The notes under the pieces are model-generated. The model was not told where the DNA came from. It was given only the letters and a program-made list of their open reading frames with translations, and searched no databases. A stretch of DNA of 64,000 bases from Candidatus Wolfebacteria bacterium (GTDB lineage: Bacteria > Patescibacteriota > Minisyncoccia > UBA6257 > UBA9933), in NCBI GenBank assembly GCA_016188075.1, contig JACPIO010000025.1:3579-67578 (forward strand). The letters are read 5' to 3'. The position numbers and the translations under genes are program-made. Below are positions 7,497-62,260 of the stretch, one piece after another. Positions within the stretch are counted from its first letter, which is position 1. Every line of letters begins with the position of its first letter.

Positions 7497-7536
7497 TCTA
7501 AATTCATAATTCTTAATTCATTATTCATAATTCATG
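7497..7536. repeat. 8-bp periodic array (ttcataattc units) abutting the mraZ start
   Basis: same family as the arrays at 19166-19206 and 51442-51473. Confidence 0.6.
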
Positions 7537-12712: not shown

Positions 12713-12785
12713 GCCGCCATCGTCTAGTGGCCTAGGACACTAGGTTCTCATCCTAGAAACCGGGGTTCGATTCCCCGTGGCGGTA
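12713..12785 (+). tRNA. tRNA-Glu (anticodon CUC)
   Basis: cloverleaf: acceptor gccgcca/tggcggt, D-arm tcgtctagtggcctaggac, anticodon loop ttCTCat, T-arm cgggg-ttcgatt-ccccg; matches bacterial tRNA-Glu. Confidence 0.85.
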
Positions 12786-12845
12786 CATAAATTTTTGATA
12801 CTACATCGAGGATCCTCGATACGACATCAAAATTAAAATTTTGGT

Positions 12846-12905
12846 CGTATCGGGAGACATCACGTTCTCAACGTGGGGACCCGGGTTCAAATCCCGGTGA
12901 GAGCA
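12846..12905 (+). other. 5'-truncated tRNA-like sequence (D-arm onward, anticodon loop ttCTCaa, good T-arm and 3' acceptor tgagagc-a) lacking a matching 5' acceptor strand
   Basis: well-formed anticodon and T arms but nothing adjacent pairs with the 3' acceptor; a separate tRNA 5'-fragment-like sequence (gcgctttcgtctagtggtcaag) lies at 12665-12690. Confidence 0.4.
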
Positions 12906-17787: not shown

Positions 17788-19206
<1,419 letters not shown>

Positions 19207-50998: not shown

Positions 50999-52144
50999 TC
51001 ACATTTCAACGGGTTTCCCGCCTTCAATCTGAATTTTTTTCAATTTCAACACCGACGCGCGAGTCGGTGCTCCGACTCCTTCGGGACGTCGGAGTTTTCC
51101 GTTAATTAATTCCGCCTCCAAAATTTTTATTCTTTGAGGTCCACCCTTCGACGGGCTCAGGGTAAATACTCCTGGTTCGGGATTTAAAGCCCGAATTTTC
51201 CGCTCTATTTGAATCGCGATTTCTCCGCCCTCGCTCCGCGCGTTTTCTAAATCCGCTGGTTCAATAAAAGCATCTTCAGTTTTGAATTTTTTGGTATAGG
51301 TGGCTCGCGATTCGTCTTGGGGTGTGAGGTTCAATCTCCCAAATATTGACTCTAATTCATGAGGAGATTGAACCTCCCGAAATTGATTCAAAAATTCCAC
51401 CAGTAAATCGCCGCCCAATTCCGCCAATTTCCGCATTAGCGATTCATAATTCATAATTCCTAATTCATAATTCTCAAGCGCTTTTTGCGCGAGAACTGGT
51501 CCGTGATCCACTTTTTCATCCATTAAAAAAAGCGTTACGCCGGTTTCTTTTTCGCCGTTCAAAATCGCGGACTGAATAGGGGAGGGGCCGCGGTATTTTG
51601 GCAAGAGCGACGGATGAATTCCGATTGAGCCGAGCCGCGGAATCTCCAAAATTTCTTTGGGAAGAATTTTCGCGTAAGCGGCAACTACAAAGAAATCATA
51701 TTCCCGATATAATAAATTTGCCGTGGGTCCGGAATGGTTCGGGTTCGGGATTGACACCCGAGACCCCGGGGCTCGATTCCCCGCGGATCCACGGTCTTCT
51801 GATTTATCCACAAGGGGGCTTGACAACTGGTCATCGTTTAATATACTAATGTTAGGTGTCAATCCCGGATTTCTCGAATCATTCGAGGTTTCGGCAAAAG
51901 CCCCGTTTAAAGCGGGGTTTTTGGTTTTTAAATTTTCTGGTTGCCAAACCGGGATATCGTATTTTTGAGCAATAATTTTGGTAGGGGGTGATGTCAGTAT
52001 CTTTTTTCTTCCCACTGGCCGGTCGGGATTGCAAACAACCACTCCCGGCGCGAAACCGGCTTTAATCAATCTCTCCAAAATAATGGCGGCGAACTCAGGA
52101 GTACCGAAGAATACGAAATTTGGATTACGAAAATACGAAATCAT
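50999..52144 (-). CDS. fmt: methionyl-tRNA formyltransferase carrying two in-frame inserts
   Basis: FGTPEFA, HPSLLPKYRG, C-terminal domain; 381 aa versus about 315; about 65-aa GC-rich insert between the VWQP and VVAAYAKIL blocks (DNA 51721-51925); ENYELGIMNYES encoded by the 8-bp array. Confidence 0.85.
   Translation of the reverse strand: MISYFRNPNFVFFGTPEFAAIILERLIKAGFAPGVVVCNPDRPVGRKKILTSPPTKIIAQKYDIPVWQPENLKTKNPALNGAFAETSNDSRNPGLTPNISILNDDQLSSPLVDKSEDRGSAGNRAPGSRVSIPNPNHSGPTANLLYREYDFFVVAAYAKILPKEILEIPRLGSIGIHPSLLPKYRGPSPIQSAILNGEKETGVTLFLMDEKVDHGPVLAQKALENYELGIMNYESLMRKLAELGGDLLVEFLNQFREVQSPHELESIFGRLNLTPQDESRATYTKKFKTEDAFIEPADLENARSEGGEIAIQIERKIRALNPEPGVFTLSPSKGGPQRIKILEAELINGKLRRPEGVGAPTRASVLKLKKIQIEGGKPVEM
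51442..51473. repeat. 8-bp periodic array (attcataattcataattcctaattcataattc) in-frame in fmt
   Basis: same family as 19166-19206. Confidence 0.6.
51721..51925. mobile_element. ~200-bp GC-rich MITE-like element inserted in-frame in fmt, containing a plus-strand tRNA-like fold and 12-bp inverted repeats
   Basis: IR gggattgacacc (51747-51758) / ggtgtcaatccc (51855-51866); tRNA-like at 51725-51791 (acceptor gggtccg/cggatcc, anticodon arm tcggg-attgaca-cccga, T-arm cgggg-ctcgatt-ccccg, no D-arm); hairpin + T-run ccccgtttaaagcggggttttt at 51901-51922. Confidence 0.55.
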
Positions 52145-52160
52145 ACGAAAAATACGAAAT
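52110..52160. repeat. TACGAA periodic array at one end of the GxxExxY unit (overlaps the fmt N-terminus)
   Basis: atacgaaat, ttacgaaaa, tacgaaatca, tacgaaaaa, tacgaaatt. Confidence 0.6.
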
Positions 52161-52570
52161 TATTTTATATTGACTACTCTTTTAAATTTTACTCCTGATT
52201 TTGTAAATCTAGCTAGTATTCCTAATTTTAAATTCGTTGATTTTAAATAATTATAAATTTGCTCTATGTCTTTTTTACTAAAAACATTTCCTTGTTTAAT
52301 TTCTAAAACTATCTTTCCTTCAATTAAAAAATCTAAATAAATTGTTGTAATAAAATTATTTCTATAATTTATTCTAATTGGTAGTTCTTTTTCGTAATTA
52401 ATATTGGATTTTTTAAAGGCAATTTCTATGGCTTTTTGATATTGATTTTCTTTATAGCCAAAACCCAATTCTAAAAATACATCAAAAAGAACACCAATTA
52501 TCTGATAACTAAGTTCAGGATATAGTAAATCGGGGTTGTAAACTTTATTGTTTTTCGTACTTTCGTACAT
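52160..52570 (-). CDS. free-standing GxxExxY / PD-(D/E)XK nuclease-like protein
   Basis: LSYQIIGVLFDVFLELGFGYKENQYQKAIEIAF ... DFLIEGKIVLEIK; inserted between def and fmt. Confidence 0.7.
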   Translation of the reverse strand: MYESTKNNKVYNPDLLYPELSYQIIGVLFDVFLELGFGYKENQYQKAIEIAFKKSNINYEKELPIRINYRNNFITTIYLDFLIEGKIVLEIKQGNVFSKKDIEQIYNYLKSTNLKLGILARFTKSGVKFKRVVNIK

Positions 52571-53099
52571 TTTCGTACTTTCGTAAGTTCTTACATTTAT
52601 CGATGTACAAAATTCCATTTAGGTGGTCTACTTCATGTTGAAAAACTTTAGCCAAAAGTCCCCAGGCTTTGATTTTGATTTTTTTAGCGTTTTTATCCTG
52701 GCCGACAAGAGTAATTTTTTCCGGGCGTTCCACGTCGCCGTAATATCCTCCGGGCACGCTTAAGCAACCTTCTTCCATTAAGGTTTTTTTATCGGAGGTT
52801 TTTATTATTTTCGGATTAAAAATAGCGTAAAACTTCTGGTCTTCCGAGGTCACTGAATTAGCGCTTCGTCGCGAGGTGGCCCTTACTTGCGCCACAAATA
52901 CTCGCATATCAAGGCCGATTTGATTGGCAGCTAATCCGATCCCATCCGCCTCAATCATTTTCTCTTTCATTTCTTTTACCATCGCATTAATTTCTTTCTT
53001 GCTATATTTAGTAAAATCAAAATTCGCCGTCTGCCTGCGCAAAAATTTTTCTTCTGCCTTGTTATCTCTTGTTAAAATTTTTAAATTTTGATTTGGCAT
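52545..53099 (-). CDS. def: peptide deformylase
   Basis: GIGLAANQIG, EGCLSVPG, HEVDHLNG; start taken at MPNQ (53099); the track ORF extends to 53177 through a repeat-rich region. Confidence 0.85.
   Translation of the reverse strand: MPNQNLKILTRDNKAEEKFLRRQTANFDFTKYSKKEINAMVKEMKEKMIEADGIGLAANQIGLDMRVFVAQVRATSRRSANSVTSEDQKFYAIFNPKIIKTSDKKTLMEEGCLSVPGGYYGDVERPEKITLVGQDKNAKKIKIKAWGLLAKVFQHEVDHLNGILYIDKCKNLRKYENVRKYEKQ
52553..52590. repeat. TTCGTA periodic array at the other end of the GxxExxY unit (inverted orientation)
   Basis: ttcgtactttcgtacattttcgtactttcgtaag. Confidence 0.6.
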
Positions 53100-62180: not shown

Positions 62181-62260
62181 TCATACGAAAATACGAAAAC
62201 ATACGAAATTTCGAAAAATAAATTTTAATTTCGTACATTCGTAAAATTTCGTACTTTCGT
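62181..62260. repeat. palindromic TACGAA array in the groES-groEL spacer
   Basis: tacgaaaatacgaaaacatacgaaatttcgaaaa ... tttcgtacattcgtaaaatttcgtactttcgtaag. Confidence 0.6.

Follow-up and report, generated by a model that had tools for sequence, protein, structure and literature searches.

The gene for methionyl-transfer RNA (tRNA) formyltransferase (fmt) of a Candidatus Wolfebacteria contig (JACPIO010000025.1), in a stretch of 64,000 nucleotides that is here called the window, carries an in-frame insert of ~74-76 codons at Fmt residues ~72-147. This insert is probably, with a likelihood that we put at about 60%, one copy of a portable RNA cassette of ~200-230 bp that is widespread in Patescibacteria, that specifies a tRNA mimic together with a cognate antisense RNA, and that rides in fmt as a passenger. 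The two predicted products of the cassette have been selected to fold, in the case of the tRNA-like domain (TLD), and to pair with each other. More than 45 copies were found in Patescibacteria, most of them intergenic.

The host gene and the anatomy of the cassette in the window are as follows, with P1 and P2 denoting its two predicted promoters:

50999-52144, minus strand: fmt, methionyl-tRNA formyltransferase, 381 aa, an open reading frame (ORF) with Pfam Formyl_trans_N and Formyl_trans_C
51704-51931, plus strand: whole cassette, ~228 bp, corresponding to 76 fmt codons in antisense; the sequence common to copies in unrelated hosts begins and ends here
51706-51711, plus strand: predicted -10 box of P1, TATAAT; a TGnTAnAAT-like box stands here in the other copies inspected
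51720-51796, plus strand: tRNA-Ala-like domain (TLD), from its fold, covariation and a covariance model
51720-31 / 51784-95, plus strand: leader/trailer and acceptor helix, 12 bp, with G3:U70 at 51727:51788, A73 at 51791 and U-1 at 51724
51725-31 / 51784-90, plus strand: 7-bp acceptor stem with G3:U70
51732-40, plus strand: mini D hairpin, 3 bp, GAA-UGG-UUC
51741-66, plus strand: anticodon-like arm, with the loop AUUGACA at 51750-56
51767-83, plus strand: T arm, with the loop CUCGAUU
51804-51812, plus strand: TTATCCACA, an exact DnaA-box consensus that precedes the -35 box of P2 by 7 nt
51820-51847, plus strand: P2, predicted sigma-70 promoter, TTGACA-16 nt-TATACT, 11/12 consensus positions
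51854-51925, plus strand: predicted small RNA, ~70 nt, with a weak middle hairpin and an A-rich stretch
51855-51885, plus strand: 5' segment of the small RNA, complementary to TLD 51732-51758
51895-51923, plus strand: predicted intrinsic terminator, a CCCCG/CGGGG core in a 13-pair stem followed by a T-run; hairpin and T-run are found in 40/41 copies

The initial annotation of this region, made from the letters of the window, had described a GC-rich element of about 200 bp with 12-bp inverted repeats. The GC enrichment belongs to the TLD half (0.69 over the TLD, 0.58 over 51700-99), whereas 51800-51925 stands at 0.41-0.43, like the remainder of fmt. The inverted repeat is indeed present and perfect, and is longer than described: 13 nt with 100% complementarity (51746-51758 and 51855-51867), for which ~0.002 occurrences are expected by chance in 450 nt on our estimate. 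It grows to ~27 pairs when G.U pairs and one internal loop are included, and its right arm lies directly downstream of P2. On folding, the plus strand (210 nt) reaches -90.8 kcal/mol (z -5.2) in a structure that includes the long helix, compared with -75.7 kcal/mol for the complement. The hairpin and T-run that had been noted correspond to the intrinsic terminator, while the internal P2 promoter, the upstream -10 box and the logic of the pairing had been missed.

Is the tRNA-like domain simply a tRNA? ARAGORN calls three tRNAs in the window, none of them at 51720-51796, and no transfer-messenger RNA (tmRNA). Rfam finds nothing at the cassette at the gathering score; in E-value mode it gives a single local tmRNA match there that uses both ends of the model and scores 25 bits, where the gathering score is 47. 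A canonical tRNA gene is ruled out by these negative searches, by the 3-bp D hairpin and by the 9-bp bulged anticodon-like stem. A real or two-piece tmRNA was likewise rejected: there is no mRNA-like domain, only 13 nt separate the halves, and their order fits neither a standard nor a permuted gene.

Folded by itself, the TLD forms a cloverleaf (-42.2 kcal/mol, z -2.3) that is supported by covariation among 38 aligned TLD copies. The cells of the alignment that form the cloverleaf are paired in 91.6% of cases, compared with 79.5% in shuffles, and 160 of them are altered on both sides, compared with 53 in shuffles. When partners are slid by one to three columns, pairing falls to at most 54%. 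Each pair of the leader/trailer helix is realized by 5-15 compensatory sequences, and compensatory changes occur in all nine pairs of the variable, anticodon-like arm. The earlier tRNA-like reading had been made to depend on support for the fold by covariance models and on the existence of further copies; the first is provided by these tests, and the second by copies in other genomes, there being no second one in the 64-kb window by covariance model or repeat comparison. In its details that reading needs revision. The 7-bp acceptor stem with a G:U pair, the T arm with its CUCGAUU loop and the 7-nt anticodon loop are as described; the acceptor helix runs on to 12 bp, the D arm that was said to be missing is represented by the mini hairpin, and the supposed 5-bp anticodon stem has 9 bp with a bulge. 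Across TLDs this stem has 8-9 bp with a bulge and a loop of 7-9 nt. The domain thus keeps the acceptor/T-arm minihelix of a tRNA, a minimal D hairpin, and an "anticodon" arm that is non-decoding and variable in sequence.

U-1, A73 and G3:U70 are invariant over the 38 TLDs, although the pattern with which genomes were searched, consisting of the tRNA-Ala T arm and 3' acceptor strand, imposed U70 while leaving G3 free. Three TLD types that differ in acceptor sequence and were found without the T-arm pattern (L014, L114, L119) likewise have the G3:U70 pair. The T arm and the 3' acceptor strand of the TLD exactly match the pattern that finds the tRNA-Ala(GGC) genes of Patescibacteria, and judging from this sequence match the TLD appears to be derived from tRNA-Ala(GGC).

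A covariance model built from the 38 TLDs (R1) scores 88.6 bits at the TLD of the window, whereas the true tRNAs of the window reach at most 33 bits. Elsewhere, TLDs of cassettes that match the search pattern score 65-92 bits and tRNA-Ala genes 30-48 bits; divergent TLDs (L002, L005, two L014 copies) fall between those ranges or below. Some relatives pass as tRNA (L034, L119 and L090). As tRNA, L034 3680-3750 scores 59 bits and L119 5680-5752 scores 41 bits, while L114 3857-3927, at 47.7 bits, reaches the tmRNA gathering score. The L034 domain is called tRNA-Glu(UUC) by ARAGORN despite its alanine acceptor stem. Because some TLDs pass tRNA or tmRNA thresholds, it is probable that public annotations of the candidate phyla radiation (CPR) contain mislabelled copies of the cassette. 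A separate partial tRNA match was seen in the window at 12842-12897 on the plus strand (Rfam tRNA, 31.8 bits, model positions 8-63), 56 nt downstream of a tRNA-Glu at 12713-12785; it is uncalled by ARAGORN and may be a truncated or unusual tRNA.

The alanine signature invites another view, in which the TLD is a housekeeping, alanine-accepting mimic, serving tag-less ribosome rescue in the manner of a tmRNA stripped of its mRNA portion, or donating alanine for cell-wall or lipid aminoacylation, with the P2 RNA as its regulator and the copies within ORFs as accidents. The invariant U-1, A73 and G3:U70, the last kept in four different acceptor sequences, would suit such a role, as would the match of T arm and acceptor to tRNA-Ala(GGC), the alignment of the Rfam tmRNA model to both ends, and the synteny of intergenic positions between species. 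However, candidate tag frames are inconsistent between relatives and no tag frame was found; the leader/trailer helix buries the 3' end; the fmt copies of the L002/L005 type are without the G:U pair; and several divergent paralogues per genome, each with a private partner, are not what a single housekeeping function would lead one to expect. We consider a housekeeping role possible but unlikely.

What lies downstream of the TLD looks like a small RNA gene, in agreement with the suggestion of the initial annotation that an antisense small RNA gene is embedded in fmt: promoter and terminator are conserved in 41 cassettes. In these, P2 matches the consensus at 10.4/12 positions on average, with TTGACN in 36/41, a TG-extended -10 box in 33/41 and a spacer of 16-17 nt in 40/41. 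The alternative that the P2 region is a coding or RNA motif was rejected, because its variation follows TTGACN and TGnTAnnnT, and the length of the spacer is fixed while its sequence is free. The terminator hairpin has a mean energy of -9.8 kcal/mol, and its stem sequence differs between copies. The distance from the -10 box of P2 to the end of the T-run averages 77 nt, from which a small RNA of ~70 nt is predicted. The upstream promoter P1 appears in other inspected copies as a box of the TGnTAnAAT type that precedes the long stem by 7-9 nt; a P1 transcript in the window would begin at ~51718-51720, at the foot of that stem.

The motif TTATCCACA stands 5-14 nt upstream of the -35 box of P2 (L001, L002, L004 and L006 included), in five of seven fmt copies and also in L080, L091, L095 and L031, although the copies taken from metagenomes had been selected for it. 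The ORF-embedded subfamily keeps it, and sequences close to it (TTATCAACA) are seen in intergenic relatives. Its role could be regulatory, or it could do no more than mark the subfamily.

An argument for a two-RNA system comes from the specificity of pairing. For 36 cassettes, duplexes were computed of TLD nucleotides 8-35 with the 60 nt immediately downstream of P2. The energy of the cognate duplex is -38.6 +/- 5.9 kcal/mol, compared with -19.2 +/- 5.5 kcal/mol for non-cognate ones, and in 32/36 cassettes the cognate RNA is the best of the 36 partners; the window duplex reaches -44.4 kcal/mol. The intermolecular helix covaries, as the cloverleaf does. Complementarity starts 5-9 nt after the -10 box in 28/30 copies with a placeable exact 9-mer match, and the first 16 nt of the small RNA are mostly unpaired when this RNA is folded alone. 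The recognition loop of the TLD reads UUGA, UUAA, UUAG or UUGG in most copies, which is the YUNR U-turn motif. Paralogues in the same genome carry different variable arms, each with a matching partner, and TLD/anti-RNA pairs are therefore orthogonal. No small hydrophobic toxin frame was found: the small RNA of the window is without AUG, and frames across P2 run to 9-13 codons and are not conserved. Nor does the downstream RNA hold a tag reading frame that is consistent across copies. A type I toxin-antitoxin system, for which a conserved small toxin frame would be looked for, was accordingly rejected.

Does the repeat act in RNA or in DNA? The duplex is stronger on the cassette strand than on the complement in 33/36 cassettes, with mismatches that are overwhelmingly G.U on the cassette strand, and this asymmetry argues that the pairing acts as an RNA interaction and not as a repeat at the DNA level. 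A DNA-level element, such as an invertible promoter for phase variation, a cruciform or a recombination site, could draw on the inverted repeat of 13-27 bp that brackets a ~96-bp segment with a strong promoter. Against it stand not only the G.T bias of the mismatches, but also the lack of a recombinase recurring among neighbouring genes, the fact that inversion would break the host frame, and the single internal orientation of ~45 copies, none of which is flipped. We regard a DNA-level role as very unlikely, and the invertible promoter switch in particular was rejected on these grounds. The placement of the repeat inside the element, together with the cognate specificity and the G.U asymmetry, also disposes of the idea that it marks a transposon end.

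The distribution of the cassette was charted mainly by a genome scan with the T-arm and 3' acceptor pattern, using one genome per species. It returned 107 matches, nearly all in Patescibacteria, most of which are tRNA-Ala(GGC) genes; 30/107 are not tRNAs, and ~27 of those have the full cassette layout. Further copies came from a metagenome scan and from a scan for a promoter followed by the complement of upstream sequence, and among these extras are TLDs whose acceptor sequences differ and others with a complete D arm. Some intergenic sites are syntenic between species, beside the HU gene in five cases and among gatA/gatC/ligA in four. Two or three copies occur in six assemblies or contigs, compared with one in the 64-kb window: L091 and L095 share one Brennerbacteria metagenome-assembled genome, L016 and L097 one assembly, and L028 and L105 another, while L114, L119 and L014 hold tandem arrays of three copies each.

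Besides fmt, three kinds of host gene were confirmed by Pfam, namely MnmA, Intein_splicing and Wzy_C. The MnmA copies are found in two species at the same site, after ATGHY; the intein copies lie in mini-inteins of giant surface proteins of three species, in the position that homing endonucleases usually occupy; and the Wzy_C copy is within a membrane protein. The ORF-embedded subfamily, with TTATCCACA upstream of P2, lies, without exception, antisense to its host and in one and the same frame, and its translations resemble ...KNPxxxGAFxE..ND....LSS.VDN..RGPAGNRTPE......NHSGPTAxLYQ. None of 13 ORF-embedded copies has a stop codon in the host frame, whereas 23/25 intergenic copies have 1-10. 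Because most intergenic copies carry stops, the open frame is a filter imposed by the host gene and not a property of the element, and it follows from the open frames of the embedded copies that the insert is translated and not spliced out. An intron removed from fmt mRNA is unlikely on the same evidence.

Over 18 copies the cassette has constant ends: on the left the -10 box, whose reverse complement encodes Leu-Tyr, and on the right the T-tract, encoding Leu-Lys-Thr-Lys-Asn-Pro ("LY" and "LKTKNP" in the fmt of the window). No terminal inverted repeats, target-site duplication, A-tail or direct repeats were found at these ends. One of the two readings in the initial annotation was an element resembling a tRNA-derived short interspersed nuclear element (SINE) or miniature inverted-repeat transposable element (MITE). 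The element is indeed tRNA-derived, and it is repeated, at many unrelated loci and in at least four kinds of host gene, but the hallmarks of both classes are missing. A MITE was rejected for want of terminal inverted repeats and duplication, the inverted repeat being internal, and a SINE because neither a tail, nor direct repeats, nor a recurring neighbouring reverse transcriptase was seen, though movement by way of an RNA is conceivable. Among neighbouring genes no recombinase, reverse transcriptase or nuclease recurs, the only regularity being the lineage-specific synteny described above, and none is of phage origin. A phage origin of the cassette itself was rejected: nine matches on viral contigs are 3' ends of tmRNA or phage tRNA-Ala genes (8/9 confirmed by ARAGORN, with L131 uncalled), and none is a cassette.

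Two loci deserve separate mention. At L098 5048-5125 (Woesebacteria contig NZCP01000003.1), a TLD-like sequence that scores 65.6 bits with R1 has no P2 or small RNA after it and overlaps the 3' end of a 527-aa frame that, by eye, is serine-recombinase-like; this could be an integration site in a TLD gene, of the kind known for tRNA genes. At L084 ~796-1000, on the minus strand, a copy that leaves the host frame free of stops is found at the 5' end of an open frame of 584 codons, either inside the gene or in its leader. This frame opens with a zinc-ribbon motif that resembles IS1 InsA, and Pfam finds nothing in it.

What does the cassette do to its host gene in the window? The Fmt product is identical to the protein annotated as HYV91_03690, and 7543 homologues were retrieved. 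As the initial annotation had observed, fmt has an insert and its reading frame (50999-52144) stays uninterrupted through it: in an alignment with 17 homologues, ~66-74 extra residues stand between VWQP and FFVVAAY, and the empty site is the rule, most of the aligned homologues having no extra residues after VWQP. AlphaFold2, run on the homologue alignment, gives residues 74-147 (window 51704-51925) a predicted local distance difference test score below 50 and no secondary structure, while the rest of the protein folds. The insert is thus predicted to be a disordered loop of ~74 residues, placed between the strand that ends in VWQP and the helix that precedes FFVVAAY. Since this loop is predicted to be disordered and most relatives do without it, no sign of benefit to fmt is seen, and the cassette is probably a tolerated passenger that is neutral for fmt.

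The cassette occurs at the same fmt site in seven homologues of 48-61% identity, whose DNA was examined. Conserved in their inserts are the -10 box and the long stem, the T-like hairpin, the motif TTGAC-N16/17-TAnnnT, the complementary segment and the terminator. The stems vary by compensatory changes (CCGUGG/CCACGG compared with CCAUGG/CCAUGG; GUCGUG/CACGAC), and two copies, L002 and L005, have a wholly different stem, GCGAGCCGGC/GCCGGCUCGC. In another, L009, the TLD half has been lost by an in-frame deletion while P2, the small RNA and the terminator are kept, which is decay of the cassette in progress. In a neighbour-joining tree of 120 Fmt proteins, for which the insert was masked, alleles with and without it are intermingled; this tree resembles a star, and repeated gain and repeated loss are not separable on it. 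Insert-less relatives show LLNYQ or IYQ where the left end of the cassette would fall, which hints at loss. The scatter of the alleles, the decay in L009 and these residues may be read as an old insertion followed by repeated loss, the alternative being repeated gain at one site.

Two explanations centre on fmt itself. In the first, the cassette is a domesticated antisense regulator whose plus-strand RNAs act on fmt mRNA or by head-on collision of transcription. Both cassette RNAs are perfectly complementary to fmt mRNA, and the same site is occupied in at least seven lineages; but the cassette is mostly intergenic and also occupies mnmA, inteins and Wzy_C, the small RNA has its conserved partner in the TLD and not in the host, and most fmt homologues do without the element, so that regulation of fmt is a distinctly unlikely purpose. 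In the second, the ~70 residues are a selected domain of Fmt, the features of the nucleotide sequence being incidental. No ORF-embedded copy interrupts the frame, and the translations of these copies are similar, as protein-level conservation in relatives, raised as a possibility by the initial annotation, would have it. However, the similarity tracks RNA and promoter motifs: amino-acid conservation follows the T arm, acceptor, promoter and terminator, while covarying stem changes alter the peptide freely. With a region that is predicted to be disordered, that is present in unrelated proteins and that carries stops when intergenic, a functional protein insertion is most improbable.

The fmt gene of the window has other sporadic inserts. 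A perfect 13-bp inverted repeat, AGGTTCAATCTCC/GGAGATTGAACCT (51327-51339 and 51363-51375), underlies the insert REVQSPHELESIFGRLNL, which is common only to P0006 among the aligned homologues. A GC-rich hairpin at 51058-51105, CTCCGAC...GTCGGAG, encodes the insert KLRRPEGVGAPTRASV, present in 3/18 aligned Fmt proteins, and has no second copy within the window. An AT-rich repeat of ~31 nt (AATTATGAATTAGGAATTATGAAT...) at 51442-51473 recurs at 7502-7533 and 19168-19205 and encodes in-frame in Fmt the peptide NYELGIMNYE, which turns up sporadically elsewhere among Fmt homologues and in the giant, intein-bearing protein of L123. This repeat may represent a second, much smaller family of in-frame repeats.

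How does the cassette compare with known systems? Rickettsia palindromic elements (RPEs) are selfish DNA found in-frame in protein-coding genes (Ogata et al. 2000, 2002, summarized in PMC10969869). Both RPEs and the cassette are short hairpin-forming repeats (~150-230 bp), are both intergenic and in-frame in unrelated and often essential genes, add a peptide at tolerated sites, and occur in more than one copy per reduced genome. In fmt, mnmA, mini-inteins, Wzy_C and intergenic DNA, the cassette indeed behaves as an RPE does. Unlike for the cassette, no promoters, terminator, tRNA-like fold or complementary RNA pair are reported for RPEs. They belong to Rickettsia and have no sequence relationship to the cassette, which belongs to Patescibacteria and is always antisense to its host gene.

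Antisense RNAs with tRNA-like features also come to mind. The c4 RNA of phages P1 and P7 and the CI RNA of P4 are reportedly antisense RNAs matured by RNase P. Like the cassette, they have a tRNA-like acceptor helix and loops that pair with sequences a short way downstream on the same strand. They control downstream protein genes (ant; the P4 replication genes) in phage immunity regions, whereas the only target of the cassette is the 70-nt RNA from its own second promoter. The Rfam C4 family (RF01695) gave no match at E-values up to 10, and the cassette has no phage context and no copy on a viral contig. The pairing geometry of the cassette is shared by the loop-to-5'-end antisense pairs with YUNR U-turn loops, of which IS10 RNA-OUT/RNA-IN is said to be an example. 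There, too, a free 5' end nucleates on a loop and pairing continues down one side of the stem for ~30-35 bp, and the cassette sequences offer the cognate-specific extended complementarity that such a pair would have. In classical antisense pairs the partners come from opposite strands of one DNA segment and regulate an mRNA; the cassette RNAs share a single strand of an inverted repeat, and neither of them is an mRNA. Its loop-bearing stem, unlike that of the IS10 pair, is the anticodon arm of a tRNA mimic.

With tmRNA and tRNA-Ala the cassette shares the acceptor/T-arm minihelix with G3:U70 and A73, but in contrast to them it has no decoding anticodon arm, pseudoknots or tag frame, and its helix is extended by the leader and trailer. 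Non-decoding RNAs related to tRNA are known as well. The 3'ETS-leuZ sponge is reportedly a piece of spacer from a genuine tRNA operon and binds stress small RNAs encoded in trans, and YrlA is reportedly a bacterial Y RNA linked to the Ro60 (rsr) gene, the anticodon side of which continues into the Ro-binding stem. These are processed by the tRNA machinery and bind other RNA or protein; unlike the cassette, they have no co-encoded cognate partner RNA and do not lie inside ORFs. Rfam gave no YrlA match at the cassette. Literature searches on tmRNA and tRNA-like RNAs in the CPR brought up no description of the cassette, and a paper on group I introns within the tRNA genes of Patescibacteria concerns a different subject. 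Because none of the families compared accommodates it, Rfam 15 has no family for it and the literature searches brought up no description, we regard the cassette as an element of a new kind. The principle behind each of its working parts is known.

These features suggest the following model. The TLD would be transcribed from P1 and trimmed like a tRNA, RNase P cutting between U-1 and G1; this 5' maturation is suggested by the invariance of U-1 before G1. It may then receive 3' trimming, CCA and alanine, a possibility considered because the alanine identity set is kept. The RNA from P2, presumed abundant, would nucleate with its single-stranded 5' end on the YUNR loop of the variable arm. From there, pairing would zip up the arm on its 5' side and continue through the D hairpin, over ~27 pairs in total, to the foot of the acceptor stem, unfolding the TLD, and the resulting long duplex is a plausible substrate for RNase III. 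In this way, each cassette would couple a tRNA mimic with its own anti-RNA in a closed and orthogonal pair. As its own terminator would stop transcription from both promoters, the cassette appears to be transcriptionally insulated. This insulation, and the fact that only the antisense orientation avoids terminating the host mRNA, would explain why it can persist inside genes and why it is always antisense there.

Several observations weigh against this model or restrict it. On our estimate of geometry the 8-nt linker is too short for a full pseudoknot in which the cloverleaf and the 27-pair helix coexist; that structure was rejected, and the folded TLD and the full duplex would have to be alternating states. 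The covarying leader/trailer helix argues that the closed helix matters too, and since this helix and a paired U-1:A73 are unusual where a free 3' NCCA is needed, alanylation of the TLD is not assured. Alanine identity is not universal, because the lineage of the fmt copies L002 and L005 has a fully Watson-Crick stem without G3:U70, and invariance of the T-arm and 3' acceptor columns is partly built in, because the search required those columns. The T loop of the window has C where 36/38 copies have U54. Its P1 is a bare TATAAT, with no TG and no good -35 box, that a consensus scan does not call, and both promoters and the terminator are predicted from sequence conservation. Neither a target other than the partner RNA nor an associated protein was found. 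Finally, the word "portable" refers to distribution rather than to observed transposition, and the ends carry no insertion signature.

It is tempting to go one step further within the two-RNA model and to see in the cassette an RNA-only addiction module, akin to a toxin-antitoxin system, or a form of copy control, in which the mimic is stable and harmful (e.g., by titrating alanyl-tRNA synthetase, EF-Tu or RNase P) and a labile but strongly transcribed anti-RNA neutralizes it. This would explain persistence as selfish DNA and would be in keeping with a closed two-RNA system whose specificities are orthogonal among paralogues, with a P2 that is very strong and a P1 that is weaker by sequence, and with an element that is multi-copy, patchy, tolerated in essential genes and without a protein partner. 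However, nothing points to toxicity, synteny over long times can also reflect usefulness, and the decaying L009 copy keeps the P2 half and has lost the TLD half, which is the opposite of antitoxin loss, though loss of a toxin would be harmless. Addiction is a doubtful addition to the model.

Another inserted unit may lie beside fmt. A PD-(D/E)XK (PDDEXK_3) gene at 52160-52618 on the minus strand sits in an AT-rich island (GC ~0.2) between def and fmt, bordered by runs of TACGAAA-type repeats (52100-52160 and 52545-52620). The unusual ends of def (…RKYENVRKYEKQ) and fmt (MISYFRNPN…) are likewise encoded by these repeats, to which a 25-nt match occurs at 62184-62208. The island looks like another inserted unit.

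What would the cassette mean for Patescibacteria? A broader proposal, which we put forward tentatively and with the odds somewhat against it, is that these bacteria harbour a new class of RNA genes, namely tRNA mimics of alanine identity, each with a private anti-RNA in an insulated cassette of ~220 bp that multiplies within genomes and is able to lie antisense in essential genes. If this is so, a widespread structured RNA family would be added to a bacterial radiation whose non-coding RNAs are almost unexplored. It would also be a warning to annotators, as some copies score as tRNA or tmRNA and others lengthen essential proteins by ~75 residues. The embedded copies would be an extreme case of dual coding, in which one strand holds a pair of structured RNAs together with two promoters and a terminator while the other is translated, and would offer a natural test of how core enzymes tolerate foreign sequence and how RNA and protein constraints are reconciled. 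Should the mimic prove to be charged and gated by its anti-RNA, it would represent a new RNA-only principle of regulation or addiction built on the tRNA machinery, and such a closed system could reveal a new use, or a new parasitism, of that machinery in organisms with minimal regulatory repertoires.

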